This document shows, piece after piece, positions 1 through 12,974 of a stretch of DNA of 12,974 bases. The stretch comes from a virus (lineage: Duplodnaviria; Heunggongvirae; Uroviricota; Caudoviricetes): positions 1-12,974 of the IMG/VR virus record IMGVR_UViG_2648501669_000022; one strand, given 5' to 3'. Positions within the stretch are counted from its first letter, which is position 1. Every line of letters begins with the position of its first letter. The notes below the pieces were generated by a model. The model worked only from the letters and a program-made list of their open reading frames with translations. It ran no database searches and was not told the origin of the DNA. The translations under genes and the position numbers were made by a program.

Positions 1-1215
1 ATGCTGCTTTCAGACCTTGCCATCAGGCGCGCGAAGCCGAAAGAAAAGGCTTATACACTCAATGACGGTAACGGGCTTTCGTTGCTCATTGAGCCGAACG
101 GTTCGAAAGGGTGGCGACTGCGCTACAGGTTTGCAGGAAAGCCCAAAATGTTGTCGTTGGGTGTGTACCCTGATGTGTCTCTGTCTGATGCCAGGGCGGC
201 AAGGGATGAGGCTAAAAGGCTTCTTGCTGGTGGTATAAATCCAAGTGAGGCCAGAAAAGCCCAAAAGCGAGAACAGGCGAGCAAATTTGGCAATACTTTT
301 GAGGGTATTGCTCGTGAATGGTACGAAAAGCGGATCGACAGGTGGTCATCGTCATACGCCGAGGAAATGATCGAGACGTTTGAAAAAGATGTTTTTCCGT
401 ACATTGGCGGTAGGCCGATCGCAGAAATTAAGCCGATGGAATTGCTGGCGGTTCTTTCCCGTCTTAATGACCGTGGTGCGACTGAAAAATTGCGTAAGGT
501 TCGCCAGCGATGCGGCGAGGTGTTCCGGTACGCAATCATCACCGGACGCGCCGAATATAATCCAGCCCCTGACCTGGTGAGCGCATTTGCTCCACATAAA
601 AAAGAGCATTACGCCTATCTGAAGGCCGACGAACTGCCGGAATTTTTCCGCGTTTTTAATACGTACACCGGAAGCCAGATCGTCAAACTGGCAATGCGGC
701 TATTAATTCTGACAGGTGTCAGACCCGGGGAATTACGGCAGGCAGAATGGCAGGAGATCGATTTTGATAATCGTTTGTGGGAAGTGCCTAAAGAACGAAT
801 GAAGATGCGCCGTCCGCATTGTGTGCCATTACCAGAACAGGCGATAAAAATACTGGAGCAGTTAAAAAACATGACAGGCCAGTATCAGTTTATTTTCCCC
901 GGTCGTATTCACCACAGTAAGCCAATGAGTGAAATGGCGATGAATGTGCTCATTCGTCGTATCGGCTATGCCGGGCGCGTTACTGGTCATGGATTCCGGC
1001 ACACCATGAGCACCATTTTGCATGAGCAGGGCTATAACACTGCGTGGATAGAGACGCAGCTCGCACACGTCGATAAAAACTCAATTCGTGGCACATACAA
1101 CCATGCGCAATATCTGGATGGTCGCCGGGAGATGCTCCAGTGGTATGCCGACTATATGGATTCGCTCGAGCATGGCGGAAATGTGGTGCATGGTGAGTTC
1201 GGAAAATGCGGGTGA
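1..1215 (+). CDS. int: Tyrosine recombinase / integrase, P4-type
   Basis: 404-aa ORF. N-terminal arm-binding-like region (AKPKEKAYTLNDGNGLSLLIEPNGSKGWRLRYRFAGKPKMLSLGVYPDVSL) typical of P4-family integrases; C-terminal catalytic signature HGFRHT plus downstream Tyr (RGTYNHAQY). Stop TGA at 1213-1215. Confidence 0.9.
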   Translation: MLLSDLAIRRAKPKEKAYTLNDGNGLSLLIEPNGSKGWRLRYRFAGKPKMLSLGVYPDVSLSDARAARDEAKRLLAGGINPSEARKAQKREQASKFGNTFEGIAREWYEKRIDRWSSSYAEEMIETFEKDVFPYIGGRPIAEIKPMELLAVLSRLNDRGATEKLRKVRQRCGEVFRYAIITGRAEYNPAPDLVSAFAPHKKEHYAYLKADELPEFFRVFNTYTGSQIVKLAMRLLILTGVRPGELRQAEWQEIDFDNRLWEVPKERMKMRRPHCVPLPEQAIKILEQLKNMTGQYQFIFPGRIHHSKPMSEMAMNVLIRRIGYAGRVTGHGFRHTMSTILHEQGYNTAWIETQLAHVDKNSIRGTYNHAQYLDGRREMLQWYADYMDSLEHGGNVVHGEFGKCG

Positions 1216-1343
1216 CTGGTTGAGTATACAGTAGTAGACTTTGAGCGACGAAAGAAAAGGCTGTGTCTAGGGTCGCTCCCGAAAATCCGTACACCTCGAC
1301 GGACTGGTACAGCCACTACAGTAGAGGACGCTGAGGTGTGCGT

Positions 1344-2141
1344 ATGATTGATATTCATGCCGAATTAAACGAATACAAAAAAGATTTTATTTCTTTACGT
1401 GAATTTCTTGAGGTCGTGCTTAAGGTCGCTGGTGATGATTATGATGTTTCAGATGTCATAACTTGGATACTCAGGAGAATAAGCGGAGAACATATCCGCC
1501 TGTACACAGTAAATGAATTTAAGCTGTTGGAATCTTTTTGTAGCCCGTATCGGGATGAATTTGATTATGATGTTCTTTATAGAAATCTGAATGCGGTTCG
1601 GAAACGTGGTTGTTTACCTGGTGAGAGGGATGAAAATGGTTTTCTGGTGTCCGGTTATTGGGAAGATCCCGAATTTGAGAACATTGGATTTATAAGGGGT
1701 GAAATTTTCGCAATTTTTCCCGATGTCCTTGACGCGTTAACGAAGCTGGAAGGCGCTAACTCTTCTGAAAATGACGAGGCACAAGGACGCGATATTGAAA
1801 AGAAAGAGTTGCGTACAGAGGATGATTTATTATCCCAAATCGCAATGCTGGAAAAAGAAAACGCAGAGTTAAGGGCAAGGATAGAGCAGTTAGAGCAAGA
1901 GCGCCCGATACACTTATATAAATACTGGGATAAAGACCCATTAGCTAAGGCTATTGAGATTAGAAACAGAGAGTGGGCCAATTACGATCCAGAAAATGAT
2001 TTTGCCACCAGGGGAAATCAAGAAGCGATAACCAGGGAGCTTAAGCAGTGGGGGGCAAGTAATGCACTTGCAACGCTCATAGAGAGGACTGCCTGCCCTA
2101 TTAACCGAGACAACAGCCAAAAGAACGCAAAGCCGGATTAA
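1344..2141 (+). CDS. Hypothetical cargo protein (265 aa) with a central leucine-zipper-like coiled coil; function unknown
   Basis: ATG at 1344 with GAGGT 6 nt upstream (the track's 1338 start is a GTG lying on the SD). Visibly AT-richer codon usage than its neighbours. Heptad-like segment LLSQIAMLEKENAELRARIEQLEQER. Followed immediately by a strong intrinsic terminator. No catalytic motif recognised. Confidence 0.65.
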   Translation: MIDIHAELNEYKKDFISLREFLEVVLKVAGDDYDVSDVITWILRRISGEHIRLYTVNEFKLLESFCSPYRDEFDYDVLYRNLNAVRKRGCLPGERDENGFLVSGYWEDPEFENIGFIRGEIFAIFPDVLDALTKLEGANSSENDEAQGRDIEKKELRTEDDLLSQIAMLEKENAELRARIEQLEQERPIHLYKYWDKDPLAKAIEIRNREWANYDPENDFATRGNQEAITRELKQWGASNALATLIERTACPINRDNSQKNAKPD

Positions 2142-2154
2142 CGCACCATACCGC

Positions 2155-2197
2155 ATACCCTGAGGGTGATTTACTGTTACCCTCAGGGTATTTTTTT
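2155..2197 (+). terminator. Rho-independent terminator after the cargo gene
   Basis: Perfect 13-bp stem ATACCCTGAGGGT (2155-2167) / ACCCTCAGGGTAT (2179-2191), 11-nt loop, then a run of 7 T (2191-2197). Confidence 0.8.
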
Positions 2198-2214
2198 ATC
2201 TTCCCCGTCAATTT

Positions 2215-2302
2215 TACCATCACCCTTAGGGTAGATTTCCTCCCGATTACCATCACCCTTATGGTTAATTTCCTTCCGGTAACCATTAGGCCTGAGGGTA
2301 TG
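2215..2302. repeat. Tandem 33-bp direct repeat (2.6 copies) carrying ACCCT-N-AGGGT palindromes, upstream of alpA
   Basis: Unit 1 (2215-2247) and unit 2 (2248-2280) are 28/33 identical; partial third unit 2281-2302. Palindromes ACCCTTAGGGT (2222-2232), ACCCTTATGGT (2255-2265), CCTGAGGGT (2291-2299); the same palindrome forms both arms of the upstream terminator. Confidence 0.7.
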
Positions 2303-2368
2303 AAAATATTCGTTATTTCTGTGCCATGATTACCTCGTCAAATTGAGTAGACGTTATGAGGTAAATAT

Positions 2369-2566
2369 ATGTCAAATACGCTTATTCGTTTAACAGAAGT
2401 TCAGCGTAGAACTGGATATAGCAAGGCATGGATTTATCGCCTTATGGGGCAAGGTAAATTTCCTGCATCAGTTAAAATTGGCTCGCGAGCTATTGCTTTC
2501 GTTGAGAGTGAAATTGACGAGTGGATTAATCAGCGTATTGCGGAATCACGCGGAACAGCTACCTGA
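2369..2566 (+). CDS. alpA: AlpA-family (Xis/MerR-like HTH) transcriptional regulator
   Basis: 65 aa; RLTEVQRRTGYSKAWIYRLMGQGKFPASVKIGSRAIAFVESEIDEWINQR matches the AlpA/Vis-type signature found next to P4-family integrases. GAGG 7 nt upstream of the ATG. Confidence 0.85.
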   Translation: MSNTLIRLTEVQRRTGYSKAWIYRLMGQGKFPASVKIGSRAIAFVESEIDEWINQRIAESRGTAT

Positions 2567-2643
2567 TTAAATGGCTACGGGGCTTTTCCCCCCAGCTATC
2601 CACCAGCAAATAAAAGTAACTTAATTCGATAGCAGGAGTTTTT

Positions 2644-3444
2644 ATGAAACTGCGAAAAACGCCCGTACAGGGGCAGGGCTTCGTTCGGCCTGAAAACCAG
2701 AATCTGCAAAATTTCGGCGAAATTATCCCGATTATTTCCGGCGTTATTGGCGGGAGTGAAACCACTATTGTTAGCGCCAGAGCGTTACATAAGGCGTTAG
2801 GTGTAGGGCGCGTTTTCCGTTCGTGGATCAAGGGGCGCATTGAAGAATACGGGTTCACGGAAGGCGTGGATTATGAGGTTGTTGAATATTTGAGCCGACC
2901 CGATCCGGTGAGCGCAAAATCTCGCCAGCAAACCGCTCTTGAGTACATCATCACAGTGAACATGGCGAAAGAACTGGCGATGGTCGAACGTACCGAACAG
3001 GGCCGCGCCGTTCGCCAGTACTTTATCAAATGCGAGGAGGAGCTACACAAGGTAGCGCCAGTGCGTTCCGCAGCGTTACGCCGGGAACTGAAAGCCCGTA
3101 TCACCGTTGCCAGCTACTTTAAGCCAATGTGTGCCGCGCTGGAGGCGTACCGGGCTGAACTGGGTAAAAACACGTTCCAGCACCACTACACCACGGAAGC
3201 CAATATGCTGGCGCGTATCGTGCTGGGTGGCATGACTGCAAAACAGTGGGCGCAGGCGAACGGCATCACAGGCGAACCACGCGACCACATGAGCACGTTG
3301 CAGCTTGAGCACCTTTCTTACCTTGAGCAGAGCAATATCACGCTGATTGAGTTAGGCCAGGGCTACCACCAGCGGAAAGCTGAATTAATTCGTCTTTCGC
3401 AGCGTTGGTTAGCCCGTCGCATGGAGGAAAACAGCCATGTGTAA
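2644..3444 (+). CDS. AntA/AntB-type antirepressor-like protein (N-terminal domain), C-terminal domain unknown
   Basis: 266 aa; N-terminal segment SARALHKALGVGRVFRSWIKGRIEEYGFTEGVDYEV resembles the AntA/AntB N-terminal domain as I remember it. AGGAG 5 nt upstream of the ATG. Confidence 0.6.
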   Translation: MKLRKTPVQGQGFVRPENQNLQNFGEIIPIISGVIGGSETTIVSARALHKALGVGRVFRSWIKGRIEEYGFTEGVDYEVVEYLSRPDPVSAKSRQQTALEYIITVNMAKELAMVERTEQGRAVRQYFIKCEEELHKVAPVRSAALRRELKARITVASYFKPMCAALEAYRAELGKNTFQHHYTTEANMLARIVLGGMTAKQWAQANGITGEPRDHMSTLQLEHLSYLEQSNITLIELGQGYHQRKAELIRLSQRWLARRMEENSHV

Positions 3445-3750
3445 CGCTCTGACCGTTACAAAAAGAAAAAGCGCCCCGTTGCCGGAGCGCCTTTGTGAAC
3501 GAATAGCCTACTGCGCCATATTGCTTACTGTCTACGAGGCAGATTATAGCGTTGTGGTCGCACAGAGTGAAGGCGCAGATCACCGTTACTACAGCACACC
3601 AGAAATGCAGAATATTTTGCTGCAAAATGTCGTTGGCCACGCTGTCCGGAAAGCAAAAAATTTTGCTGGTGGCGTGACTGATACGATTTTTTCTGGTTGC
3701 TCGGTGCTGATCAACTTAACCTGGACTTATGTACAACATTGCAACTATTC

Positions 3751-3897
3751 CTACTTTAAGCTGAATGTAACTTTACCTATATCATTAGAGGTATGGTCGC
3801 GCTTGACCTCAATTTCACCATTTTGTAGCCCTGCTACAAAAAAATATAAAAGTGTCAATGTTGCTGCAATCAGTAACCATTTTCCAAAAATATACAT
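3751..3897 (-). CDS. Small membrane peptide (48 aa), not in the ORF track
   Basis: Translated by hand from the minus strand: MYIFGKWLLIAATLTLLYFFVAGLQNGEIEVKRDHTSNDIGKVTFSLK. One predicted TM helix at the N-terminus. Starts 21 nt downstream of the Arc-like stop on the same strand; AT-rich; weak SD-like AAGGG upstream. Confidence 0.35.
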   Translation of the reverse strand: MYIFGKWLLIAATLTLLYFFVAGLQNGEIEVKRDHTSNDIGKVTFSLK

Positions 3898-3918
3898 TCT
3901 TGATTTTACCCTTAATCG

Positions 3919-4092
3919 TCAACCTTTTGGCACGATGCCTCGCTGTTGTAATTCTTTGCGGAGCACTCGTTTAATCCAGGTAGCTAATGAGGTGTCGCCG
4001 TCTGCTTTGGCTGCCTCCTCAAGTTGTGCCCTAAATTCTTCTGGTAGCCGCATTTGGTATGGTGGCGATCGTTTTTCTAATGGTGTTGACAT
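3919..4092 (-). CDS. Arc/MetJ-type ribbon-helix-helix DNA-binding protein (57 aa), not in the ORF track
   Basis: Translated by hand from the minus strand: MSTPLEKRSPPYQMRLPEEFRAQLEEAAKADGDTSLATWIKRVLRKELQQRGIVPKG. Beta-strand-like PYQMRLP followed by two helices is the Arc/Mnt pattern. The start codon is embedded in a palindromic operator. Confidence 0.65.
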   Translation of the reverse strand: MSTPLEKRSPPYQMRLPEEFRAQLEEAAKADGDTSLATWIKRVLRKELQQRGIVPKG

Positions 4093-4144
4093 GGTAATTA
4101 CCCATAATTACTATAGTTACACGGTAATTACCATTGTACTTACC
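4093..4144. promoter_or_regulatory. Divergent promoter/operator region: perfect 10-bp palindrome GGTAATTACC x2 plus a degenerate third site
   Basis: GGTAATTACC at 4093-4102 (abutting the Arc-like start codon) and 4123-4132, 30 bp centre to centre; degenerate copy GTACTTACC at 4136-4144; TATAGT-like -10 for the minus strand at 4111-4116. Confidence 0.55.
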
Positions 4145-4228
4145 ATTGCAAAAAAAACAACGCCCCGGACTGCGGGAACAGTACCAGGGCGTCTAACCAC
4201 CAACGATAGCGAAAGTATCGAGGTAGCT

Positions 4229-4432
4229 ATGATAAATCATACCACACACCCGCAAGGGCGGGACTCGCACAACCTGAATAAATACATCTGGCGTTTTATC
4301 GCCCTGAGCACGGCACAACCGCGCGTAATTCACATCGAGGCCACCAGCGAACAGGAAGCACGCCAGCAATCTCCTGATGGCTGCGTGATGGTATTCGCCG
4401 CCCGTATTCGCCAGGAGGTGCACCATGCATAA
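4229..4432 (+). CDS. Hypothetical protein (67 aa), first gene of the replication operon
   Basis: This is only the 3' part of the 331-aa track ORF (3437-4432). ATG at 4229 with GAGGT 4 nt upstream; the upstream 800 nt of that ORF overlaps the Arc-like gene and the intergenic region and translates to low-complexity sequence. Stop overlaps the next start. Confidence 0.5.
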   Translation: MINHTTHPQGRDSHNLNKYIWRFIALSTAQPRVIHIEATSEQEARQQSPDGCVMVFAARIRQEVHHA

Positions 4433-4790
4433 CCTGTCAATTTCTGACCTTAACAGCATTCAGTTTGATGAGAAATTTACCGGGCAGCTACTGGTCAATG
4501 TGGAGAATGGACGCGTGGTAAGTAATTACCACCTGCCGGATGGTGCAATTGCCGGAAGTGTTGAAGCATTGCTGGAGCTGGCAGAACGTGCGCGACTGAT
4601 TAAGCCGTCAACGTGCCATCACGATGATGATCTGCATTTTACCGGACGCATGGTGAGTCACTACGAAAACGGCGTTGAGGTATCCCGCGAACGTATGCGT
4701 GATAATTGCTGTTTCGGAACACTGCCGGAATTTATCGAATTGCTGACCAGTTGCGGTTATCAGGTTATTCAGGGGGTGAATCATGGATAA
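4425..4790 (+). CDS. Hypothetical protein (121 aa) made of two tandem copies of a ~50-aa FTG-motif domain
   Basis: AGGAGGTG 4 nt upstream of the ATG. Internal repeat: FTGQLLVNVENGRVVSNYHL... and FTGRMVSHYENGVEVSRER.... Start and stop both overlap neighbouring genes. Confidence 0.6.
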   Translation: MHNLSISDLNSIQFDEKFTGQLLVNVENGRVVSNYHLPDGAIAGSVEALLELAERARLIKPSTCHHDDDLHFTGRMVSHYENGVEVSRERMRDNCCFGTLPEFIELLTSCGYQVIQGVNHG

Positions 4791-4983
4791 TCAGCAAGCA
4801 ACAATGACAATTACCCTGAGTGTGCCAGATGATTTCACCGGACGCGTACTGGTTTACCTGGATAAAGGGAAAGTGAAATCACAATGCCGACTGAAAAGTA
4901 ATGAGATTGTTGGTTCTCCTGAATTTTTTTCTGAACTTTGTATTCGTGCGAAAATAAAACCGGAACTGCTGACAGGAAAATAA
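4783..4983 (+). CDS. Hypothetical protein (66 aa), single-copy paralogue of the FTG-motif domain
   Basis: FTGRVLVYLDKGKVKSQCRL...GSPEFFSELCIRAKIKPE aligns with both repeats of the upstream gene; AGGGGGTGA upstream. Confidence 0.6.
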   Translation: MDNQQATMTITLSVPDDFTGRVLVYLDKGKVKSQCRLKSNEIVGSPEFFSELCIRAKIKPELLTGK

Positions 4984-4987
4984 AACC

Positions 4988-5278
4988 ATGAAAAAGAAAA
5001 ATTCTGGCTTTACTGCCAGCGGCCCCGCTCGGCCTGAAATCAGACACGGAGATATTTACCGCGACACCAGACGTGGGGGACGAGTGGTTATTCGTCACGT
5101 TACGCCAGGCAATATCACCTACCGCCGTGAGGCTTACGAATATGACTGCGTAATGCCGCGCCGTCAGTTTGAGCGTGATTTTATTCTGGTGGAAAACAAA
5201 CAACAGGCGGTGGCAAGACGTGCAGCCACGAATATTAAAAAAATCCGGGCAATGTTGGTTGCGGGAGGTAAGAAGTGA
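4988..5278 (+). CDS. Hypothetical basic protein (96 aa)
   Basis: ORF with AGGAAAA upstream; stop overlaps the GTG start of the helicase gene. No family recognised with confidence. Confidence 0.5.
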   Translation: MKKKNSGFTASGPARPEIRHGDIYRDTRRGGRVVIRHVTPGNITYRREAYEYDCVMPRRQFERDFILVENKQQAVARRAATNIKKIRAMLVAGGKK

Positions 5279-6687
5279 AAAACGCACCGAATTTGAAATA
5301 TCAGCCGAAGGATAAATTCACTGAGGTAATCATTTTTGCCGGGACGGACGCTTACTCCCATGCTCAACACTGGATTGAAAGCGAAGGACGGAAACACGGC
5401 GATAATGTGCCACCTGTTTACCTGGGGCCAAAGCAACTGGCAGACCTGGCGAATATCCGCATTATTGACGAGAAACGCCGCTTTGCACGTGTCTATCTCG
5501 CGGGGGAGATCGAACCAATCCAGATCAATGCTATCGCTGAAAAGCTGGCGCTGGCTGGCGTACAGGAGGCGAAATTATACAAAGGTATCACCGACCGGGA
5601 GCCGGAGAACTGGCGCGACTACCTGCAACGGATCCGCGAACAGGCAGAGCGCGAAGAAATGCTTACTGACGAGCAATACAGCCAGCGAAAAACCACACTA
5701 CCAATGAGTATTGGATCTGCAGGGTACGACACACAGCTTGATTATGTCGTTAAGGGCGTGATTCCGGCTAATTCATTGTGCAGCACATACGGCGCGAGCG
5801 GTTCCTATAAATCGTTCCTCGCGTGTTCCTGGGCGTGTCATGTTGCCACGGGTCGCCACTGGGGAGGCCGCAGGGTGGCGCATGGTTCGGTGATGTATGT
5901 CGTCGGTGAAGGTGGCATTGGTGTCCCTCGTCGTATCAAAGCATGGGAAATCGTTAATGATGAACGGGTGAAAAATCTGTACCTGGTAAACCGCCCGATT
6001 TTTCCGGCGGTCCCGCTTGATGTTGATGAAATGGTCATCGCTTCCCGTCAGGTTGAACGGGAAACGGGTAAACCGGTACGCATGATTATTCTGGATACGC
6101 TGGCGCGTTGCTTTGGCGGTAATGATGAAAATGACGCGCGGGATATGGGGGCGTTTATCCGTGGATGTGACGAACTGAAACGACGCACGGGGGCCACGGT
6201 ACTGGTGGTTCACCATTCCGGCAAGGATGAAACAAAAGGGGCGCGTGGTTCCAGTGCATTTCGTGCATCTCTGGACGCTGAATACCGTATTCGCCGTGAA
6301 GGTGCGGACAGTGAAGCCCTGGTTATCTCCTGCACCAAAATGAAGGACGCGGAGGAACTGAAAGAGGCTGCATATGATTTACGCGTGGTGGAGCTTTTTA
6401 CCGACACTGACGGGGAGTTAATCACGTCGCTGGTGGTTGTGGATAAGCCGCGCCCACCTGTTGAACTGGAACGCATCGAGGAGGCCGGGAACAAGACGGA
6501 AAATCACGCTGCGCTATGGCAGTGCATCAGAACGCGAACAGCACACGGGGAGGCGTGCACTATCGCCCTTCTCCGCGATGATATGAAAAAGCTGGGGTAT
6601 GAAATGAAAAACTTCCGGCGCTGGCTGTACAAGCTGGAAAGCGACGGCGTAATCGCTATTGACGGTGATTATGTGCGCCCACTGTAA
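5275..6687 (+). CDS. RepA/DnaB-like RecA-fold replicative helicase (the family I remember as AAA_25), probable replication initiator of the island
   Basis: 470 aa; GTG start with GGGAGGT 5 nt upstream. Walker A-like GASGSYKS, Walker B-like ILDTLARCF, and VLVVHHSGK motif typical of RepA-type helicases. Its stop abuts the iteron array. Confidence 0.8.
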   Translation: MKNAPNLKYQPKDKFTEVIIFAGTDAYSHAQHWIESEGRKHGDNVPPVYLGPKQLADLANIRIIDEKRRFARVYLAGEIEPIQINAIAEKLALAGVQEAKLYKGITDREPENWRDYLQRIREQAEREEMLTDEQYSQRKTTLPMSIGSAGYDTQLDYVVKGVIPANSLCSTYGASGSYKSFLACSWACHVATGRHWGGRRVAHGSVMYVVGEGGIGVPRRIKAWEIVNDERVKNLYLVNRPIFPAVPLDVDEMVIASRQVERETGKPVRMIILDTLARCFGGNDENDARDMGAFIRGCDELKRRTGATVLVVHHSGKDETKGARGSSAFRASLDAEYRIRREGADSEALVISCTKMKDAEELKEAAYDLRVVELFTDTDGELITSLVVVDKPRPPVELERIEEAGNKTENHAALWQCIRTRTAHGEACTIALLRDDMKKLGYEMKNFRRWLYKLESDGVIAIDGDYVRPL

Positions 6688-7075
6688 AAAGTGAGGAGCA
6701 AAAGTGAGGATGGCGGGTAATTTAACAAAAAATCAACGCCACTCCTCACTTTCTCACCTGTATATAGGTCAAAAAGTGAGGAATGAAAAACATATTGTAA
6801 AACAAGACATTACAACAACAAGAAAAACAGGTGAGGAGCAGGACGGGAATAACAAAAAGTGAGGAACAAAAGTGAGGAATGGTGAGTTAATAGAAATGAG
6901 GTAATAAAAATAACAGGTAGGTTAAAAAACACACCATGCAAGATATTAACTAAAACTTAACTATTTACCTCACTTTTGCGTATATATAAGGATTAAAAAG
7001 TGAGTACTTAAAAATACATTTAAAATCATATTGTTATTAACTTCATAAATTTTCACTGTGCAGCAGGTGAGGAAT
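6688..7075. repeat. Putative origin of replication: AT-rich iteron array, core GTGAGGA
   Basis: Direct copies of GTGAGGA at 6691, 6704, 6776, 6831, 6859, 6872 and 7067; inverted copies at 6743-6749 (TCCTCAC) and 6967-6973 (ACCTCAC); variants GTGAGTT (6882) and GTGAGTA (7010). Most are preceded by an A-run; the region is strongly AT-rich. Confidence 0.7.
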
Positions 7076-7153
7076 TAAAAAATTAGGAATGTTAAAAATG
7101 AAAACAGAATGTTGTGTCAGTGCCGTTGGGCAACGTAGCAATCAGTAAAAACG

Positions 7154-7696
7154 ATGGGGCAAAGCATGACTAAGCTGACCATTAACAGAAAACCTAAAGG
7201 CATTTACGGCACGCCGCAGAAAACGACGCAGGCGGCGCAGGAGCAGGATAAAACCACGTCGGCGCATAAAGTGATGCCCGGTAACCAGAAAGCGCAGCAG
7301 AAGCCCACAGGGGCGACACCGTGGCGGCATATGACCAAGCGCCAGCGCAAAAACCGCAGGCGCGTTAACCGCCTTATCGAACTGTGGCCAGAATTATTCA
7401 GCCGGGAAGCACCGAAGCCGCTTAAGGTGGGGATATTTGACGACCTGATGCAGGATCTCGCCGTCAGGGGGCTGGCATTCGGGCCAGGGGCATTACGTGC
7501 GACGCTGGCATCTTATGCGCAGTGTCCGCGCTATTACCGCGCCTTAATGGCTGGTGGGGTACGCTACGACCTGAAAGGCCAGCCGTGCGGCGAGGTGACA
7601 CCACAGGAACAACAGGACGCAGAAACGCGGCTGGTGGCGCTGAATGAGAAGCGCAAACGTCAGCGCCGGGCAGCAAAGGAGAAAACAGGCGCATGA
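7154..7696 (+). CDS. ProQ/FinO-domain RNA-binding protein with a basic N-terminal extension
   Basis: 180 aa; LIELWPELFSREAPKPLKVGIFDDL...RYDLKGQPCGEVTPQE parallels the ProQ N-terminal/FinO signature as I remember it (PLKIGIF.DL ... R.DLDG.PCGEL). The first ~70 aa are Lys/Arg/Gln-rich. Exact start uncertain (ATG 7154 or 7166). Confidence 0.7.
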   Translation: MGQSMTKLTINRKPKGIYGTPQKTTQAAQEQDKTTSAHKVMPGNQKAQQKPTGATPWRHMTKRQRKNRRRVNRLIELWPELFSREAPKPLKVGIFDDLMQDLAVRGLAFGPGALRATLASYAQCPRYYRALMAGGVRYDLKGQPCGEVTPQEQQDAETRLVALNEKRKRQRRAAKEKTGA

Positions 7697-7980
7697 TTCA
7701 CGACAGCAAAGCGGAAGCACTGGAAGCGCGTGGTCTGTACCGGAGAGCGGCGGCGCGGTGGGCTGAGGTCATCATGCTGGCGAATGATGACAAGGCACGG
7801 GAACAGGCGGCAAAACGTCGCGCGGAATGTATCCGCAAGGCAGCACGCCCACCAGCAAGGCAGGATAATTTCGGGGAGATGCGCGAAACCATCAGCCGGG
7901 CACATGCCGGGATGGGATTACATCAGCCCAATGGTAAGGCATTCAGGAAATACCCTGGATCGAAAAATTGCAGTCAGTGA
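7693..7980 (+). CDS. PerC-family transcriptional activator-like protein
   Basis: 95 aa; N-terminus MIHDSKAEALEARGLYRRAAARWAEVIM fits the PerC/Pch pattern (E..G.WRRAA.RW) from memory. ATGA overlap with the upstream stop; followed by tandem terminators. Confidence 0.6.
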   Translation: MIHDSKAEALEARGLYRRAAARWAEVIMLANDDKAREQAAKRRAECIRKAARPPARQDNFGEMRETISRAHAGMGLHQPNGKAFRKYPGSKNCSQ

Positions 7981-7985
7981 CGGAG

Positions 7986-8009
7986 GCCGGGATTTTTCCC
8001 GGCTTTTTT
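7986..8009 (+). terminator. Rho-independent terminator (first of two)
   Basis: Stem GCCGGG (7986-7991) / CCCGGC (7998-8003), loop ATTTTT, then 6 T (8004-8009). Confidence 0.75.
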
Positions 8010-8022
8010 GTGCCAGTAAAAA

Positions 8023-8056
8023 GCCCGCAGCCAGAAGTGTTGCGGGCTTTGTTTTT
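8023..8056 (+). terminator. Rho-independent terminator (second of two)
   Basis: Stem GCCCGCA (8023-8029) / TGCGGGC (8041-8047), 11-nt loop, then TTTGTTTTT (8048-8056). Confidence 0.7.
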
Positions 8057-8181
8057 CAGGTGATTGAAGTCAATGGGAAGAACGCGATCATCATGCGTTA
8101 TTGTTTCATAAATTGCAATGATGTAGATCGTCATTTCAGTTTGTGCAATCATAATCATTGTTTTGTTCAGGAGATATGACT

Positions 8182-8355
8182 ATGAGAAAAGCCAGCGTGA
8201 AACCCGTTTTACTCGCTCGTGAGCAGATTGAAGCATTACAGCGCATCCAGGACGAGGAACGCCGCAATTCTCCGCTGGGGATTGCTCCGAGCATTCATGA
8301 GGTCGCCCGGCGTTTAATGCAGCGGGCGCTTTATCCCGTAGAACGTCCGGCCTGA
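8182..8355 (+). CDS. Small hypothetical protein (57 aa), first gene of the late-like operon
   Basis: AGGAG (8169-8173) lies 8 nt upstream of the ATG at 8182; the track's 8158 start and the 8176 ATG have no usable SD spacing. Helical, charged sequence; possible small regulator. Confidence 0.5.
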   Translation: MRKASVKPVLLAREQIEALQRIQDEERRNSPLGIAPSIHEVARRLMQRALYPVERPA

Positions 8356-8394
8356 TGGTCGTGATTTTTTGGTGAAAAAAGAGAGGTGATAAAA

Positions 8395-8973
8395 ATGCCA
8401 GCAAGCAAAGAAGATTTGCGATTAAAACTGATGGAGGTGGTTAACGCTCTGTCAGAGTCGCAGGGCAGCACTCCGCAGGAGATTATCGAAATTCTGAATG
8501 CGATCCCCGCACAGGATTTCATAAAAGAGGATAACGCTAATCAAAACATCGTCGCGTCAGTCGAAGATGAATCCTCACTGGCAGAAGCCCAGGCTAAAGC
8601 AGATTCCGCATACAGCAATATGGGCCGTCGCGCTCCAGCCCCGTTTGCTGGTGAAAAGTCGATGGATTACCGCAAGCGTGCATTAATTGGTGCACAGAAG
8701 CTGGCTAAAAAATTCAGTGATGTGGATATTCGTTCCGTTTCAGATTCTGCAACGCTGGCGGTGCTGGAAGATCAGATTTACCAGGCTGCAAAAGACAGTG
8801 TTCAGTGGGCCGTGGAAAACACGCCGGGCCATTTGGGTAAAACCGTAAGAATGGATGAAGCTGGTCGTCGTATTACTGAATATCAGGGCGATCCGAACGT
8901 CTGGCTGAACGCCTTCAAAATCCCTCCCCGTCGCCTGGTCAAAATTAACACTGCAAGCCTCGCGGGGGCATGA
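8395..8973 (+). CDS. Hypothetical protein (192 aa), acidic helical N-terminal half
   Basis: ATG at 8395 with GAGAGGTG 6 nt upstream (the track's 8386 start is a GTG inside the SD). No family recognised. Confidence 0.6.
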   Translation: MPASKEDLRLKLMEVVNALSESQGSTPQEIIEILNAIPAQDFIKEDNANQNIVASVEDESSLAEAQAKADSAYSNMGRRAPAPFAGEKSMDYRKRALIGAQKLAKKFSDVDIRSVSDSATLAVLEDQIYQAAKDSVQWAVENTPGHLGKTVRMDEAGRRITEYQGDPNVWLNAFKIPPRRLVKINTASLAGA

Positions 8974-8990
8974 AAAACGTGCTGAGTTCA

Positions 8991-9021
8991 GCCCTGCCGG
9001 ATTTGGCGGGGCTTATTGCTT
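8991..9021 (+). promoter_or_regulatory. Intergenic stem-loop with U-rich tail (weak terminator or attenuator)
   Basis: Stem GCCCTGCC (8991-8998) / GGCGGGGC (9005-9012) with one G-U wobble, loop GGATTT, then TTATTGCTT. Confidence 0.35.
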
Positions 9022-9037
9022 ATAACCGGATAACATT

Positions 9038-9709
9038 ATGCTTTTAACAGAAATTGAGGCGGCAAAGCAGATTCGGGACGGTCAGCTACCGTCGCCTTAT
9101 CAGTTTTCCAACATGTGGCTGGTTAACCTGCGTATTACAGGAACCGGTATGGCCTACCGCGCCGAAGAAAAAGAATTTGTCTGGCGTTCACCGCAAACTT
9201 ATCTCAATCCGCAGTTCCTGGAACGTTGCGCCGGAGTACCCGTCATTATCGACCATCCCGAAGGCAAAACCATTGAAGACGTTGGCGAACGGTCGCGCAT
9301 TATTGGCACCGTCATGTTGCCGTATATTCGCGGTGACGAGGTGTGGGGTGTATGCCGGATTTACGGGCAGGAAATCATCGATTACATCCAGAAAGCACGG
9401 GGGGAGGTATCCACCAGCCCGTCGGTTGTGTTTTGTGGTGCGTCCGGTGGGGCAGAAGTTCCTGATGTAATGGGCGAGGACAATTTTTTCATTGAGGGTA
9501 CGCCATTCCTTATCGATCACGTTGCGCTCGTGCCGCTTGGTGTTTGGGATAAGGGCGGGAAACCATCGGGTGTGGAGGTAACAACGCCGACAGCAGAAGA
9601 ACAGCTCGCCGGAATGGTCCGGGACGTTATTGATGCGGCCTGCAAGCCAGCCCTGGAAAAACTGGAAGAAATATCCGGGCGGCTGGCTCAACTGGAAAAA
9701 ACAGAGTGA
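9038..9709 (+). CDS. Hypothetical protein (223 aa); weak resemblance to HK97-type prohead proteases
   Basis: Size and a His (VPVIIDHPEG, residue 73) to Ser (GEVSTSP, residue 125) spacing of about 52 aa recall HK97-family prohead proteases; this is memory of motif shape only. C-terminus is coiled-coil-like. Confidence 0.55.
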   Translation: MLLTEIEAAKQIRDGQLPSPYQFSNMWLVNLRITGTGMAYRAEEKEFVWRSPQTYLNPQFLERCAGVPVIIDHPEGKTIEDVGERSRIIGTVMLPYIRGDEVWGVCRIYGQEIIDYIQKARGEVSTSPSVVFCGASGGAEVPDVMGEDNFFIEGTPFLIDHVALVPLGVWDKGGKPSGVEVTTPTAEEQLAGMVRDVIDAACKPALEKLEEISGRLAQLEKTE

Positions 9710-9716
9710 GTGAATC

Positions 9717-10334
9717 ATGAAAATTGCTAAAAACTTAAATCTGATTATCCCTGTGCGCACTGAAAAGGGAAATGGCTGGATCCATGCCACGCCGATCAGC
9801 AAAGAGGTGTTTAAAGAGCATTTCTTCATCCTGAGTAAAACCTTTTCTGCCATTTTTTCTGAAGGTCTTGGTGTTGTTGCGGGTCCGCGCGTTGCCTGCC
9901 TTATGCTGGAGAAAATCTCCCGTGACTCCGGTTTATGGGATGGGGAGAAAGGCATACGTAATACGCTCATAAACGAAATTATTCGCCTGGCAAACCTTGT
10001 TTATCCAGTGGAGGGCAAAGGCTACGACACAATCCCTCTCGATATGGCGCTGGAGCGTGAAATCGTTGATTTGGACGAAGTGGCGGGTGAACTTGTTTTT
10101 TTTACATGCGTCTCGTCGATAAATTCCCCGGAGCAGACGAAGGGGACTATGGATGCGGTGAATGGAATATGGAGCACTCAATGCTCGTCCTTGAGTCTTA
10201 CGGAATGGATCGCTTCATTGCCGACATTGAAGCCTGCCGTCAGTTCTGGCGCGACGGCGAACACGTCATCAGCGACATCCTCGACTACTCAGCCGGAGCC
10301 GGATTCAGAGACATCTGTGCAGATTCCGGTCTGA
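9717..10334 (+). CDS. Hypothetical protein; zero-frame ORF convincing only to about 10105, possible tail-assembly-chaperone-like gene
   Basis: GAGTGAG 6 nt upstream of the ATG. The first ~129 codons look protein-like; after the T8 run the zero frame becomes Ser/Thr-rich low complexity and loses the G-rich first codon position, which the -1 frame shows instead. Confidence 0.5.
   Translation: MKIAKNLNLIIPVRTEKGNGWIHATPISKEVFKEHFFILSKTFSAIFSEGLGVVAGPRVACLMLEKISRDSGLWDGEKGIRNTLINEIIRLANLVYPVEGKGYDTIPLDMALEREIVDLDEVAGELVFFTCVSSINSPEQTKGTMDAVNGIWSTQCSSLSLTEWIASLPTLKPAVSSGATANTSSATSSTTQPEPDSETSVQIPV
10097..10103 (+). other. Candidate -1 slippery heptamer T_TTT_TTT within a T8 run (10096-10103)
   Basis: Zero-frame codons are GTT TTT TTT. 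The -1 frame has a stop at 10088-10090, opens at 10091 and runs to 10399. Confidence 0.4.
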
Positions 10335-10399
10335 ATGTAAAAACAGCAGCTCAGTTTCGTGAGCTGCTCAAATTCAAGAATCCCGCAGGAGTATTGTAA
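10106..10399 (+). CDS. -1 frame ORF (97 codons from the ATG), likely translated as a frameshift extension of the upstream gene or as its own product
   Basis: Better codon-position bias than the overlapping zero frame; its stop overlaps the next start (TAATG at 10397-10401), indicating translational coupling to the 680-aa gene. Confidence 0.5.
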   Translation: MRLVDKFPGADEGDYGCGEWNMEHSMLVLESYGMDRFIADIEACRQFWRDGEHVISDILDYSAGAGFRDICADSGLNVKTAAQFRELLKFKNPAGVL

Positions 10400-12441
10400 T
10401 GTCAGGTAATCAGATGCCAGTTCTGACGCTGGACGTTAATGAAGAACACCTCAAACGGCTTGAGGCAATTTTTGAAAAGTATCGCAACGGGCTGATGATC
10501 GGCCCTGCAGGAACGCCGATGAAAATACCGGGGCAAAGTGGGCGCAGCGTGGGGGCAGGCTTACCCGTGGCGGCAAAATCTGGTCGGACAGGACCGGATG
10601 TATCCGGGAGAGTGAGGGACGAAAAAGGGCGCTTTGTCGGCAGTGGAAAAACAGCAGATTCGTTCGTAAGCAACTATAAAGGTCGCGGCGAAACGATGTT
10701 TGATAAGTATCTCAGCGGGCTGGGGAAAAATGCCCAACAGACGCTGAAAACTTACAAGCAGATCAATTCTACGCTACAGACGACCACTTCGAGATTAAAC
10801 AACCTGTTTAAAACAACCGTATCGTGGGGGACAAAACTTGCGGTTATGGGCGTTGCCGGGCCGTTTGGCTTTGGCATGATGTCTCGTAGTGTTGTAGAGA
10901 AACAGAAAAATGCAGATGAGCTGGTGGCAACGCCGGGAGAATTAAAGGCGGCAGAGAGTACCTATTCACCTTATTTTTCCGGTGTTGGCAATGTGCTCAA
11001 TACACTGGCAGCCGCGCAAAATGATCAAGAACACCCCGCCCGCGTTGGCCTGCTTCATCTGGGGATTAATCCTGATAAAAACGCGACTGAAAACCTGCCT
11101 GTATTCCTGAAAAAGGTTGCAGAGCTGGCAAAGGAATATCAGGGAAGTGGTCTTACCCAGAGTATGCTCAGGGGAAGAGGGCTTGGATGGGTAAATTTTG
11201 GTCTTACTAACCAGTTAGTCAAATATCAGGACAAAATACCTGAACTCAACAAAGAGTTTTCGTTACGTGCAGCGCAGAATGATTCGTTACTGACCTCTGC
11301 ACATACAAGTAAATATCAGAATCTTACCAGTAACCTGGAAAAAAACTGGGATCGGCTTACCAGCGGATTTCAGGGAGCAATGGCGGGGAATGAAGACGCT
11401 TTAATCAGAATGTCTGATGGTACCACGAATGCTGCCCTGAATTTCATGAATGGTGAGAACTTTAAAAGGATTCTGACTGATGTTGAAACGGGGCTGGATA
11501 AACTTGGTAAGTACGTTAATGGCCCGGATTTTAATAACGACCTGAACAATTTTGCCGAAAACGTTGCAAAGGTCACCAAGGCACTTAGCGGATTTGTTGG
11601 TTTTGCCGTTGAACATCCCTGGCTTTTTGGGGCCGCAGTGCTTGCGGGGCCATCAAGAGTTGGTGCCGTGGCAGCCACAACAACCGGAGTTGCCGCTCGT
11701 GTTGTCGGTGGAAGTCTTCTTGGGGCTACAGCCGGAACAGTAGCAGGATTGGCTATTCCTACAAATAACACACCTACCACCAGTGAGGAAATGAAAGGGC
11801 TGGAGGGGCGTTTCAACTTTGATTATTTTAACGAAGTGCAGGAGTGGCAAAAAAACAATCCGGGTAAGGTCTGGCCTGGAGGATTGCAGGGATTTTCAAA
11901 TCAAGTAAACAGATCTGCATATTTATCCAGAGGGATCAGGAATAACAATCCCGGAAATCTTAATTTCGCAGGACAAAAAGGGGCTACCCTGGAATCGGGG
12001 CCAAATGCCCGTTTTGCCAGCTTCCCGACGATGCTGGAAGGCATTGCTGCCTTAGATCGGCAGGTAATGCTATACCTGAAACGCGGCAAAAATACGATTG
12101 ATCAGATCATTGATATTTATGCCCCTTCATCTGATGGAAATAACACATCGTCCTATAAAAGCTATCTCTCTCAGTACACCGGTTTAGGTGTTAAGGAGAA
12201 AATTGATGGTTCTAATTTTGAGGTCATGAAAAAGCTAATTCAGGGCATTATTAACCATGAAAATGGTGCTGCCGCTAAAGCTGTAAGTGTTGAAGATGTG
12301 ATCCGGGCGCTGGCTATGAATCGTGGGATTGTCCCTACAGCAGGAAATAATAATCAGAACGTTAAGCTTGATATTCTTCAAAAACCAGGCTCCGACATAG
12401 TCGCTCAACTGGCCGGATTTTCGGGGCTTATGCCGAGGTAA
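10399..12441 (+). CDS. Large tape-measure-like protein (680 aa) with Gly/Ala-rich hydrophobic segments and a C-terminal NNPGN-motif domain
   Basis: AGGAG 7 nt upstream of the ATG. Central segment AVEHPWLFGAAVLAGPSRVGAVAATTTGVAARVVGGSLLGATAGTVAGLAIP; N/T/S/K-rich helical regions; C-terminal RGIRNNNPGNLNF...IYAPSSDGNN. The gene itself is well supported; the function is a guess. Confidence 0.7.
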   Translation: MSGNQMPVLTLDVNEEHLKRLEAIFEKYRNGLMIGPAGTPMKIPGQSGRSVGAGLPVAAKSGRTGPDVSGRVRDEKGRFVGSGKTADSFVSNYKGRGETMFDKYLSGLGKNAQQTLKTYKQINSTLQTTTSRLNNLFKTTVSWGTKLAVMGVAGPFGFGMMSRSVVEKQKNADELVATPGELKAAESTYSPYFSGVGNVLNTLAAAQNDQEHPARVGLLHLGINPDKNATENLPVFLKKVAELAKEYQGSGLTQSMLRGRGLGWVNFGLTNQLVKYQDKIPELNKEFSLRAAQNDSLLTSAHTSKYQNLTSNLEKNWDRLTSGFQGAMAGNEDALIRMSDGTTNAALNFMNGENFKRILTDVETGLDKLGKYVNGPDFNNDLNNFAENVAKVTKALSGFVGFAVEHPWLFGAAVLAGPSRVGAVAATTTGVAARVVGGSLLGATAGTVAGLAIPTNNTPTTSEEMKGLEGRFNFDYFNEVQEWQKNNPGKVWPGGLQGFSNQVNRSAYLSRGIRNNNPGNLNFAGQKGATLESGPNARFASFPTMLEGIAALDRQVMLYLKRGKNTIDQIIDIYAPSSDGNNTSSYKSYLSQYTGLGVKEKIDGSNFEVMKKLIQGIINHENGAAAKAVSVEDVIRALAMNRGIVPTAGNNNQNVKLDILQKPGSDIVAQLAGFSGLMPR

Positions 12442-12446
12442 TACCC

Positions 12447-12974
12447 ATGCTAATGAGTAAAGCAGAATATGCTAAACACAAAGGCGTAAGCCGCCAGACA
12501 GTTTACGACTGGATCGAGAAAGGCGAAGTGGTCATGTCCGGTAAAAAAATCGATGTGGAAGCGACAGAGCAGCGGAACAGCCCACCAGCACAGGAAAAAG
12601 ACACAGTTTCTGAAATGTGGCCAGAGAGAACGCTGGAAATGACGTGGGGCGAGTTCTGGAAAGCAGTTAAGGCCAGAGACGGTAAAATCCCTGCACCAGT
12701 AACGGACGATGACATACAGCAGCGTGTGCAGGATGCAGCCGGGGAATTAGGCTGGGAAGTGCACTTTCTTGATGATGGTGCTATCTGCCTTGAGGATGAT
12801 GAAGGGCAGCATTACTTTGAAAAATACAATTTGCGAGGTAATGCCAGGCTGGCAATTCGTATGCTGCGTTGCGAACTCTGCTATGTTGCAGGTGATTATC
12901 CCGATGAACTGGAATCATGGAGTGAAGCCGGGCTAAACGCCCTGGCTGAATGGGAAAAATCAGGCCATCAATGA
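12447..12974 (+). CDS. HTH protein (175 aa) with a Nu1-like small-terminase N-terminal signature; candidate TerS or packaging-redirection factor
   Basis: GAGGT 7 nt upstream of the ATG. N-terminus SKAEYAKHKGVSRQTVYDWIEKGEVVMSGKKIDVEA parallels lambda Nu1 (KKQLADIFGASIRTIQNWQEQGMPVLRGGGKGNEVLYDSAA) from memory. Acidic C-terminal half. Stop TGA is the last codon of the window. Confidence 0.45.
   Translation: MLMSKAEYAKHKGVSRQTVYDWIEKGEVVMSGKKIDVEATEQRNSPPAQEKDTVSEMWPERTLEMTWGEFWKAVKARDGKIPAPVTDDDIQQRVQDAAGELGWEVHFLDDGAICLEDDEGQHYFEKYNLRGNARLAIRMLRCELCYVAGDYPDELESWSEAGLNALAEWEKSGHQ

Follow-up and report, generated by a model that had tools for sequence, protein, structure and literature searches.

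The 12,974-nucleotide stretch of DNA analysed here (the window: positions 1 to 12,974 of the IMG/VR virus record IMGVR_UViG_2648501669_000022) lies within a chromosomal island of the phage-inducible chromosomal island (PICI) type, and towards its 3′ end it encodes a 680-residue protein which, by near-identity and synteny with a gene of contractile-tailed prophages, is a predicted tail tape-measure protein (TMP). Directly ahead of it lies the gene of a predicted tail-assembly chaperone, which carries the signals for a −1 frameshift. The reading that we favour, and regard as reasonably probable, is that these two genes form a cassette captured from a Rac-type helper phage, and that the TMP is functional and serves to build chimeric tails. 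Satellite-encoded tape measures as such are known already from the PICI-like elements (PLEs) of Vibrio; what is new is a classical Escherichia coli PICI with a recently captured, polymorphic cassette of chaperone and TMP.

The predicted tape-measure gene, its chaperone and its lytic domain

The gene is an intact plus-strand open reading frame (ORF) which begins with an ATG at 10399, 7 nt downstream of a GGAG, and ends with a stop codon at 12439–12441; its start overlaps the TAA of an upstream −1 frame, in the arrangement TAATG. A previous, sequence-only reading of the window had called the product tape-measure-like from its N/T/S/K-rich stretches, a Gly/Ala hydrophobic stretch and the motif RNNNPGN...YAP, all of which are present. 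Residues 101–395 are enriched in Leu, Asn, Gly, Ala, Thr and Lys, and residues 396–456, with 21% Ala, 18% Gly and 15% Val, form the sole stretch of the protein with a Kyte–Doolittle(19) value of at least 1.2. By analogy with other TMPs and with ejection proteins, this hydrophobic segment would have a role in membrane insertion.

The same reading had proposed sequence and structure searches by region. For the C-terminal region both phmmer and Foldseek led to 7Q47 (see below); the full-length protein found no match among Pfam or NCBIfam profiles, and PADLOC returned nothing informative for it. As Pfam and NCBIfam are silent, the identity of the protein is taken from its orthologs in complete phages. 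Among the PHROG profiles, phrog_7694 matches the protein over its full length (E = 2e-296), a family which itself carries no annotation in PHROG, and the PHROG ‘tape measure’ family, phrog_2276, covers residues 466–630 only, in other words the lytic domain. E. coli prophages encode TMPs which are 88–90% identical in amino acid sequence (F2_407_2_2 (L009), UMNF18 (L012), L015, L036 and several IMG/VR contigs), and the homolog in TMP position of the 47.5-kb GenBank phage genome PP818812.1 (pPE4; gp56) is 70% identical, again over its full length. Protein word-index searches, one with the TMP at full length and one with the chaperone, returned close relatives only, at 88% identity or above; those of the TMP number in the hundreds and come from E. 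coli and Salmonella. A scan of genome contigs with the TMP led to a single Yersinia locus and was not informative.

The order of tail genes in the prophages is informative in this regard. It runs from the sheath gene (phrog_205, E = 6e-54) through a 147-aa tube-position gene and a 205-aa gene to the TMP gene, and then through two small genes to those of the baseplate hub (phrog_196), baseplate J and the fibres. Situated in this way between sheath, tube and chaperone genes on one side and baseplate genes on the other, the gene occupies the TMP position of a contractile-tailed phage, and the chaperone is the only neighbour from that position which the island retains. The full-length match to phrog_7694, the orthologs in phages and prophages, and a C-terminal domain with matches in the PDB together place the resemblance beyond chance. 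On this evidence of near-identity and synteny, we take the 680-residue protein to be a tape-measure protein, as the sequence-only reading had suspected.

The gene just 5′ of the TMP gene has a product 86–91% identical to that of the gene in the same position in the prophages. It contains an 8-T run that includes the heptamer T_TTT_TTT in the correct phase. The offset of this run from the start of the gene, 380 nt, is one and the same for the window copy, the copy of the divergent island L040 and 10 copies from prophages or phages, and the stop codon of the −1 frame overlaps the ATG of the TMP gene in the window copy and in nine of 11 others, that of L040 included. The −1 frame is 65–94% conserved, in parallel with the 0 frame. 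Moreover, the chaperone codons F128 and F129 are invariant, or nearly so, in a 62-member alignment whose mean column identity is 28%. Judged by its sequence, the region 9717–10399 is a classic G/GT tail-assembly chaperone arrangement; a Foldseek search of the chaperone model against the PDB found nothing, and the best plausible fold match of the model is the PLE1 chaperone, 5IR0.

The C-terminal part of the TMP contains the motifs RNNNPGN (residues 514–520), YAP (574–576) and HENG (620–623). The sequence-only reading had associated the first two with a cell-wall-interacting domain of phage virions, and the association proved apt: the region corresponds both in sequence and in fold to 7Q47, a member of the PHA02564/Enc34 family. 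For the domain, a phmmer search of the PDB gave 7Q47, the structure of the Enc34 phage endolysin's catalytic domain (E = 1e-10), and 9VVP, the N-terminus of a 1295-aa ‘Gp29’ (E = 3e-12); tblastn in addition picked up gp16-type internal virion proteins from Kayfunavirus-like podoviruses, at their N-terminal ends. An AlphaFold2 model of the domain, made from 40 diverse relatives, has a mean pLDDT of 81 with a core above 93, and Foldseek matched it to 7Q47 alone (probability 1.00, E = 3.5e-8, TM 0.71). Peptidoglycan-degrading activity has been demonstrated for the PHA02564 family in the Enc34 endolysin, with a catalytic signature of Glu131, Tyr95 and Trp79 (PMC8943055). The equivalents of Glu131, Tyr95 and the aromatic residue 79 in the TMP are E621 (codon 12259–12261), Y586 and Y574, respectively. 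The 40 relatives all have N517, P518, G519, N520 and Y586, and the conservation of E621 among them is 90% or higher. Sequence and model alike indicate that the C-terminal domain is a peptidoglycan hydrolase of the Enc34/PHA02564 type, with its catalytic signature intact.

The PGAP label of the TMP, ‘lytic transglycosylase’ (SLT/GH23), is only approximate. This allele has no match to the Pfam SLT profile (PF01464, with its E-S motif), the fold is instead of the Enc34 type, and the paper on Enc34 proposes a glucosaminidase specificity where the label speaks of a transglycosylase. An SLT-type domain is found at the same position in other TMP alleles, namely those of pPE4, of the STEC719 prophage and of island L040; alleles of this type lie at L069 6318–8411, at L002 33091–35172 (helper) and at L040 10001–12007 (island). 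With SLT-type and Enc34-type domains found at one and the same position, the helper TMP appears to be a hotspot of domain swapping and of length variation (652–704 aa).

Proposed capture of the cassette and its probable source

Homology to helper DNA rises to 87–89% nucleotide identity exactly at 9717, the ATG of the chaperone gene, and extends to 12417, 24 nt before the stop of the TMP gene, whereas the scaffold-like and protease-like genes of the island show 65–70% nucleotide identity to the helper. As the jump in homology is confined to 9717–12417, chaperone and TMP genes appear to constitute a younger cassette, precisely spliced into the island.

The distribution of this cassette was surveyed in 5426 complete E. 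coli genomes. The island-specific junction between protease-like and chaperone genes is present in 14 of them, and the island protease gene without the cassette in approximately 19, for example in 52F4, where it runs straight into the gene of the helix-turn-helix (HTH) protein with which the island closes; a further count, of genomes with the chaperone in prophage context only, gave approximately 64. In terms of gene content, TMP-bearing and TMP-less islands differ by the cassette only. In one island (L070, from ETEC6335, 7419–7673), located at a third chromosomal site near yejO/narP, the chaperone gene is cut to its first 255 nt and is followed by the HTH gene. This island appears to be a deletion derivative of a cassette-bearing one, from which it follows that the cassette can be lost. 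The same module also occurs in islands with integrases that are 26%, 37% and 75% identical to that of the window, with other replication proteins and with other integration sites.

The island TMPs form a group of their own. Among five alleles with the PHA02564-type domain identity is 94–98%, and with none of approximately 50 phage alleles does it exceed 90%; 16 residues are fixed in these five while being absent from the 25 closest phage alleles, with 13 of the 16 falling within residues 627–659. The TMP of island L040, which is of the SLT type, is 86% identical to the PP818812.1 allele and 70% identical to the TMP of the window. The ratio of nonsynonymous to synonymous substitution rates (dN/dS) between island TMP alleles is 0.12–0.27 at dS up to 0.23, as compared with 0.19 between phage alleles, and it falls to 0.02–0.07 in the hydrophobic segment, which hardly varies between island and phage alleles. 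By these ratios the cassette is under purifying selection, with the proviso that, since the TMP alleles are mosaic, part of the constraint on the TMP may stem from functional copies in phages and have reached the islands through recombination.

The likely helper is a temperate phage of the Rac type with a contractile tail. The early regions of the prophages in question are Rac-like (RecET, KilR, YdaT), and the chromosomal copies examined, in F2_407_2_2 and UMNF18, adjoin uspF and ompN; in the prophages and in PP818812.1 the head genes are arranged in the order TerS, TerL, portal, DUF2213 protease-scaffold, capsid and so forth. The prophage sheath and tube genes are found in 88 of the 5426 genomes, but in at least eight of the 14 genomes with a TMP-bearing island and in at least eight of the approximately 19 with a cassette-less one; these co-occurrence counts are lower bounds, covering 60 of the 88 prophage-positive genomes. 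For the TMP-bearing islands the hypergeometric probability of this co-occurrence with the prophage is ~1e-11, with clonality ignored. How closely an island TMP resembles that of the prophage in the same genome varies: the two are 88% identical in UMNF18 and 57% identical in STEC719, where the prophage TMP has 697 aa and an SLT-type domain.

Two annotations of these phages call for comment. PP818812.1 is named ‘Actinobacillus phage vB_Apl-pPE4’ (L002), and carries the Rac-like gene set of E. coli (RecET, Kil, DicA, YdaT); as its chaperone gene is without nucleotide differences from that of the UMNF18 prophage, its stated Actinobacillus host is doubtful. The portal-position gene of the prophages (L009 4018–5454; L012 18007–19443) is given by PGAP as ‘anti-CBASS protein Acb1 family protein’, and its counterpart of the same length in PP818812.1 (478 aa) matches Pfam Phage_portal_3 (E = 2.5e-14). 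The Acb1 label is either a mis-annotation or the mark of a fusion.

How the cassette may act

In the mechanism that we favour, the TMP would consist of a long ruler region at the N-terminus, the hydrophobic membrane segment and the C-terminal lytic domain, and the satellite of ~14.6 kb would have captured the cassette (9717–12417) from a contractile-tailed temperate phage of the Rac type. Induction of the helper would switch on the late operon of the satellite, and with it the scaffold-like protein, the protease-like protein, the G and GT forms of the chaperone, the TMP and the HTH protein. The satellite chaperone would then hold the satellite TMP, around which helper tube and sheath would polymerise on helper baseplates, such that particles carrying the island would have chimeric tails with the satellite allele of the TMP. 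At infection, the lytic domain of this TMP would cut the cell wall, and its hydrophobic segment would aid the passage of DNA across the membrane. The timing of expression, the incorporation of the island TMP into virions and the benefit it brings are all drawn by analogy in this scheme. As to the benefit, the satellite may gain independence from the highly variable TMP allele of the helper, or may replace that allele, for example in escaping interference of the Tab or Rta kind.

A more far-reaching version of this idea is possible rather than probable. It holds that the satellite deliberately swaps the TMP allele of the helper, including the type of cell-wall enzyme (Enc34-type as against SLT-type in STEC719), with the outcome that its particles penetrate recipients differently, or differ in their escape from Tab/Rta-like exclusion, and that this is a general and horizontally exchangeable strategy in Enterobacteria. 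A change in tail length as the purpose of the cassette was considered and rejected. TMP lengths are 679–680 aa in the five close island alleles and 669 aa in L040, as against 652–704 aa in the full-length phage alleles, such that the former lie inside the range of the phages; the gap of 18 aa in STEC719 would, on the assumption of ~1.5 Å per residue, amount to only ~3 nm.

We think it unlikely that the cassette is a neutral or transient passenger, acquired from the helper and kept intact mainly by gene conversion with no gain for transfer or host fitness. In favour of such a passenger are the high nucleotide identity to helper DNA with clean boundaries at gene edges, the mosaic TMP alleles, and the cassette-less sister islands, which are at least as common as cassette-bearing ones (~19 against 14 genomes), with one deletion remnant besides. 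However, no full-length copy examined from an island is broken, the island alleles with the PHA02564-type domain form one group and have their 16 island-specific residues, the frameshift signal is kept, and dN/dS between the island alleles is 0.12–0.27. Moreover, the cassette has been kept across backbones with 26–75% integrase identity and 74% PerC identity, with L040 having the other, SLT-type, allele.

A role in interference or defence is compatible with a structural one. The island TMP or chaperone could poison or out-compete the tails of the helper or of a superinfecting phage, or could be paired, like Rta in PLE11, with an unrecognised inhibitor of TMPs, such that tails would be finished only where the island TMP is used. 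PICIs do typically hamper the reproduction of their helpers (Rpp), and there are precedents for action directed at the TMP: prophage Tab targets the TMP C-terminus (PMC10884400), and PLE11 makes, in addition to its own TMP, the protein Rta, which blocks the TMP of phage ICP1 and to which the PLE TMP is resistant (PMC12987554). In the paper on ‘Tai’ tail-assembly interference, tape measures appear in the reference list only. That the island-specific substitutions cluster near the TMP C-terminus fits such a role, as does the hypervariability of helper TMPs, which is consistent with an arms race. We nevertheless judge interference to be quite unlikely as the explanation of the cassette, in that PADLOC recognises no known defence gene on the island, Rta-like and Tab-like genes included, TMP-bearing and TMP-less islands differ by the cassette alone, and a pure poison would need neither intact catalytic residues nor a given length class nor the G/GT frameshift.

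The sequence-only reading had further put forward a repurposed tape-measure-like protein, acting at the membrane as an exclusion effector in the lysogen and not as a component of the virion. This is very improbable. What could be cited for it is only that the protein has a hydrophobic segment and a lytic domain, which are ordinary features of TMPs, and the protein is otherwise full length, within the length class of the phages and near-identical in architecture to virion TMPs, with its catalytic residues kept, its chaperone co-inherited and an evolution like that of the phage copies. Its gene is part of a late operon for morphogenesis, separated from perC by the terminator-like hairpin, and does not have the position of an immunity gene or moron; a constitutive lytic and membrane-active protein would, in addition, probably be toxic, like the full-length Enc34 endolysin (PMC8943055). 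Barely credible, lastly, is a decayed Rac-type prophage remnant beside an integrase, with no satellite involved: four or five genes are indeed phage-derived, and ETEC1748 has a further phage remnant on the 3′ side, but the 20-bp att repeats lie 14.6 kb apart with chromosomal genes adjoining, the PICI backbone (int, AlpA, Icd-like, DUF4222, primase, PerC) is one found also in E. coli PICIs whose mobilisation has been shown by experiment, the genes of phage origin have a changed order and precise splice points, and the same architecture recurs at three chromosomal sites at least.

The island and its place among known satellites

The island is delimited by attL and attR, 20-bp repeats of the 3′ end of a tRNA-Gly gene at approximately −183 and +14416 in window coordinates, and with a length of ~14.6 kb it amounts to about one third of the PP818812.1 genome. 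Its genes follow one another in the order integrase, AlpA, AntA, small ORFs, DUF4222, replication protein, ProQ, PerC, scaffold-like, DUF2213 protease-like, chaperone, TMP and 175-aa HTH (Table 1); in the contigs bearing the exact TMP, the last of these is followed by a 59-aa ORF and then directly by chromosomal ETT2 genes. Pfam and PHROG revealed no capsid, portal, TerL, sheath, tube, baseplate or lysis genes on it, and the island has no homolog of the baseplate hub, the helper hub (phrog_196) occurring in prophages only. From the att repeats, the length, the adjoining chromosomal genes, the PICI backbone and the lack of major capsid protein, portal, TerL and lysis genes, the element is, to judge from its DNA, a genuine PICI-type satellite island; the satellite-like context given to the gene by the sequence-only reading is upheld by repeats, backbone and gene order alike.

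Table 1. Features of the window, with positions in window coordinates and the evidence on which each assignment is based
Feature	Position	Strand	Evidence
Satellite backbone	1..7980	+	Pfam/PHROG matches, gene calls
P4-family integrase	1–1215	+	Pfam/PHROG
AlpA	2369–2566	+	Pfam/PHROG
AntA	2644–3444	+	Pfam/PHROG
DUF4222	4988–5278	+	Pfam/PHROG
AAA_25 replication protein	5275–6687	+	Pfam/PHROG
ProQ/FinO	7154–7696	+	Pfam/PHROG
PerC	7693–7980	+	Pfam/PHROG
Terminator-like hairpin after perC (8020–8050) and promoter-like site (8128–8155)	8020..8155	+	Consensus scan only
Scaffold-like protein, 195 aa	8386..8973	+	65% identity with the pPE4 gp46 C-terminus and its prophage homologs; phrog_6216 positions 409–545
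DUF2213 prohead-protease-like protein, 223 aa	9038..9709	+	Pfam DUF2213, E = 3.7e-6; phrog_530 head maturation protease
Predicted tail assembly chaperone, 0-frame product (‘G’-like), 205 aa	9717..10334	+	phrog_11810
Putative −1 slippery heptamer T_TTT_TTT, inside 8-T run 10096–10103	10097..10103	+	Conserved offset
98-codon extension in the −1 frame (‘T’ part); predicted fusion chaperone of 227 aa	10103..10399	+	Open frame from slip site
Predicted tail tape-measure protein (TMP), 680 aa	10399..12441	+	phrog_7694; 88–90% amino acid identity to prophage TMP-position genes
Gly/Ala/Val-rich hydrophobic TMP segment, residues 396–456	11584..11766	+	Only region with Kyte–Doolittle(19) of at least 1.2; nearly invariant
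Predicted Enc34/PHA02564-type peptidoglycan hydrolase domain, residues ~508–640	11920..12318	+	Sequence and fold match to 7Q47
Island-specific TMP signature, residues 627–659	12277..12375	+	13 of 16 island-fixed residues
175-aa protein with N-terminal TerS/MerR-like HTH	12447..12974	+	phrog_57 TerS, E = 1.3e-7, residues 1–42

The hairpin after perC has a 12-bp stem followed by a T run. Downstream of it, the genes of 9038–12974 overlap or are spaced by 5–8 nt, and the scan found no plus-strand terminator with more than six stem pairs among them. Hairpin and promoter-like site, standing ahead of the morphogenesis operon, suggest that its late expression is separately regulated. The helper has a single 440-aa protease-scaffold gene, with whose N-terminal half the protease-like protein shares 53% identity, and relative to this gene the scaffold-like and protease-like genes are in inverted order; they are much older, split copies of it, and plausible candidates for the redirection of the capsid (size). 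The PGAP name for the scaffold-like gene, ‘NUDIX hydrolase’, looks wrong. The HTH protein, which closes every island variant and is conserved at 79–96%, had no match among PDB sequences at E ≤ 1, although the solved structure of RppC was expected to appear there; from its N-terminal region it is a candidate packaging-redirection or small-terminase-like protein.

Some further observations concern the backbone and the sister islands. AntA is an AntA/AntB antirepressor, and the helper prophages have an Ant, 37–43% identical, on the opposite strand and inside the tail region; the pair may offer a route for the island to induce the helper, or the reverse. The ORF at 3437–4432, of 331 aa in public annotations, looks spurious; only its last ~58 residues match an Icd-like protein of the ETEC1748 island, which has a YlcI/YnfO gene on the other strand. 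Among sister islands, the replication proteins (5275–6687 in the window; L001 14299–16071; L010 5883–8021) are 88–94% alike over their first ~130–140 residues and then pass into C-terminal modules with no relation to one another: AAA_25 (470 aa), primase family (590 aa) and DUF927 (712 aa). In GPEC617 (L004 9963–12835) the module from PerC to HTH is replaced by five unknown ORFs, and this alternative middle module has no PHROG matches. It is followed there by a pair of genes for an AAA ATPase and a DUF4435 protein, which we take to be a PARIS-like defence arrangement. On the 3′ side of the ETEC1748 island (L001 24000–36900) there is another remnant bounded by an integrase, which codes for a major capsid protein, a 614-aa unknown and a baseplate protein, such that mobile elements stand in tandem at this tRNA-Gly site.

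Satellite-encoded tape measures have so far been shown experimentally only in the PLEs of Vibrio, and the benefit they bring is explained in part by an inhibitor which is present in PLE11 only. If the favoured reading of the island is true, the building of chimeric tails extends to classical PICIs of E. coli, and in a genetically tractable system that comes with natural controls, namely sister islands that have the cassette and others that lack it, one divergent island whose TMP is of the other type, and strains with a very different helper TMP. Tail genes are forbidden components of PICIs in SatelliteFinder (PMC10085698), and as detection models reject elements with such genes, TMP-bearing PICI variants are under-counted. 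Two unannotated families, phrog_7694 and phrog_11810, moreover gain predicted functions as TMP and tail-assembly chaperone, and the ‘lytic transglycosylase’ label can be corrected to an Enc34-type hydrolase.

At the level of the domain, the island TMP has in common with Enc34/PHA02564, 9VVP gp29 and Kayfunavirus gp16-like proteins the motifs RNNNPGN, (Y/W)AP, NNT..Y and HENG together with the catalytic Glu. Whereas in those proteins it is a free endolysin or the N-terminus of an ejection protein, here it is joined to the C-terminal portion of a tape measure. With the TMPs of Rac-type prophages and phages (UMNF18, F2_407_2_2, PP818812.1 gp56, Escherichia phage Rac-SA53) the likeness covers architecture, length class (679–693 aa) and the upstream frameshifting chaperone; the island gene differs in standing on 14.6 kb without sheath, tube, baseplate or head genes, and in belonging to an allele group of its own with the 627–659 signature.

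Among satellites, the Gram-negative PICIs EcCICFT073, EcCIEDL933 and EcCIMP1 resemble the island in integrase, AlpA, primase and PerC, in a size of ~10–15 kb and in a morphogenesis/packaging module 3′ of the primase. Described PICIs are without tail genes, however, whereas the island has a TMP and a chaperone, and it has in addition helper-derived pieces of protease and scaffold and no recognisable Rpp. With the capsid-forming PICIs (cf-PICIs) it has in common the left arm that these share with PICIs, but it is without their major capsid, portal, TerL and head–tail connector genes; membership of this group was rejected, since these defining genes are absent, by Pfam/PHROG and gene calls, from the window and from the 1.4 kb that follow it up to attR. 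A P4-like satellite was likewise set aside, as Pfam/PHROG showed no Psu, Delta or Sid, and the integrase alone is of the P4 family.

The closest parallel is found in the Vibrio PLEs, in view of which the premise of the sequence-only reading, that satellites hijack helper tails and encode no tail-length determinants, is outdated. A TMP, a chaperone and a baseplate hub are all encoded by the PLEs themselves, and these proteins replace the ICP1 counterparts in PLE virions, as established by transmission electron microscopy, western blot and mass spectrometry (PMC12987554, Nature 2026), and deletion of the PLE tmp gene lowers transduction by 96–99.9% (PMC12987554). The same work points to putative tmp genes of PLE-like elements and, as gene maps only, of a number of cf-PICIs. 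Given these genes and the chimeric tails of the PLEs, the cassette is not, in principle, the new kind of satellite late module that had been envisaged.

Like a PLE, the island is the probable satellite of a contractile-tailed phage, and has adjacent TMP and chaperone genes of its own with a TMP that differs from that of the helper. Its backbone, on the other hand, is that of an E. coli PICI and its likely helper a temperate phage of the Rac type. Unlike the PLEs, which have the hub BhuB, it is without a hub gene, and unlike PLE11 it has no recognised Rta-like inhibitor. The cassette is optional in the island, given the sister islands that do without it, and the island TMP carries a predicted peptidoglycan hydrolase domain, which sets it apart from that of the PLEs. 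Lastly, the island TMP is 57–90% identical to helper alleles, whereas the TMPs of PLE and ICP1 are ~20% identical to one another.

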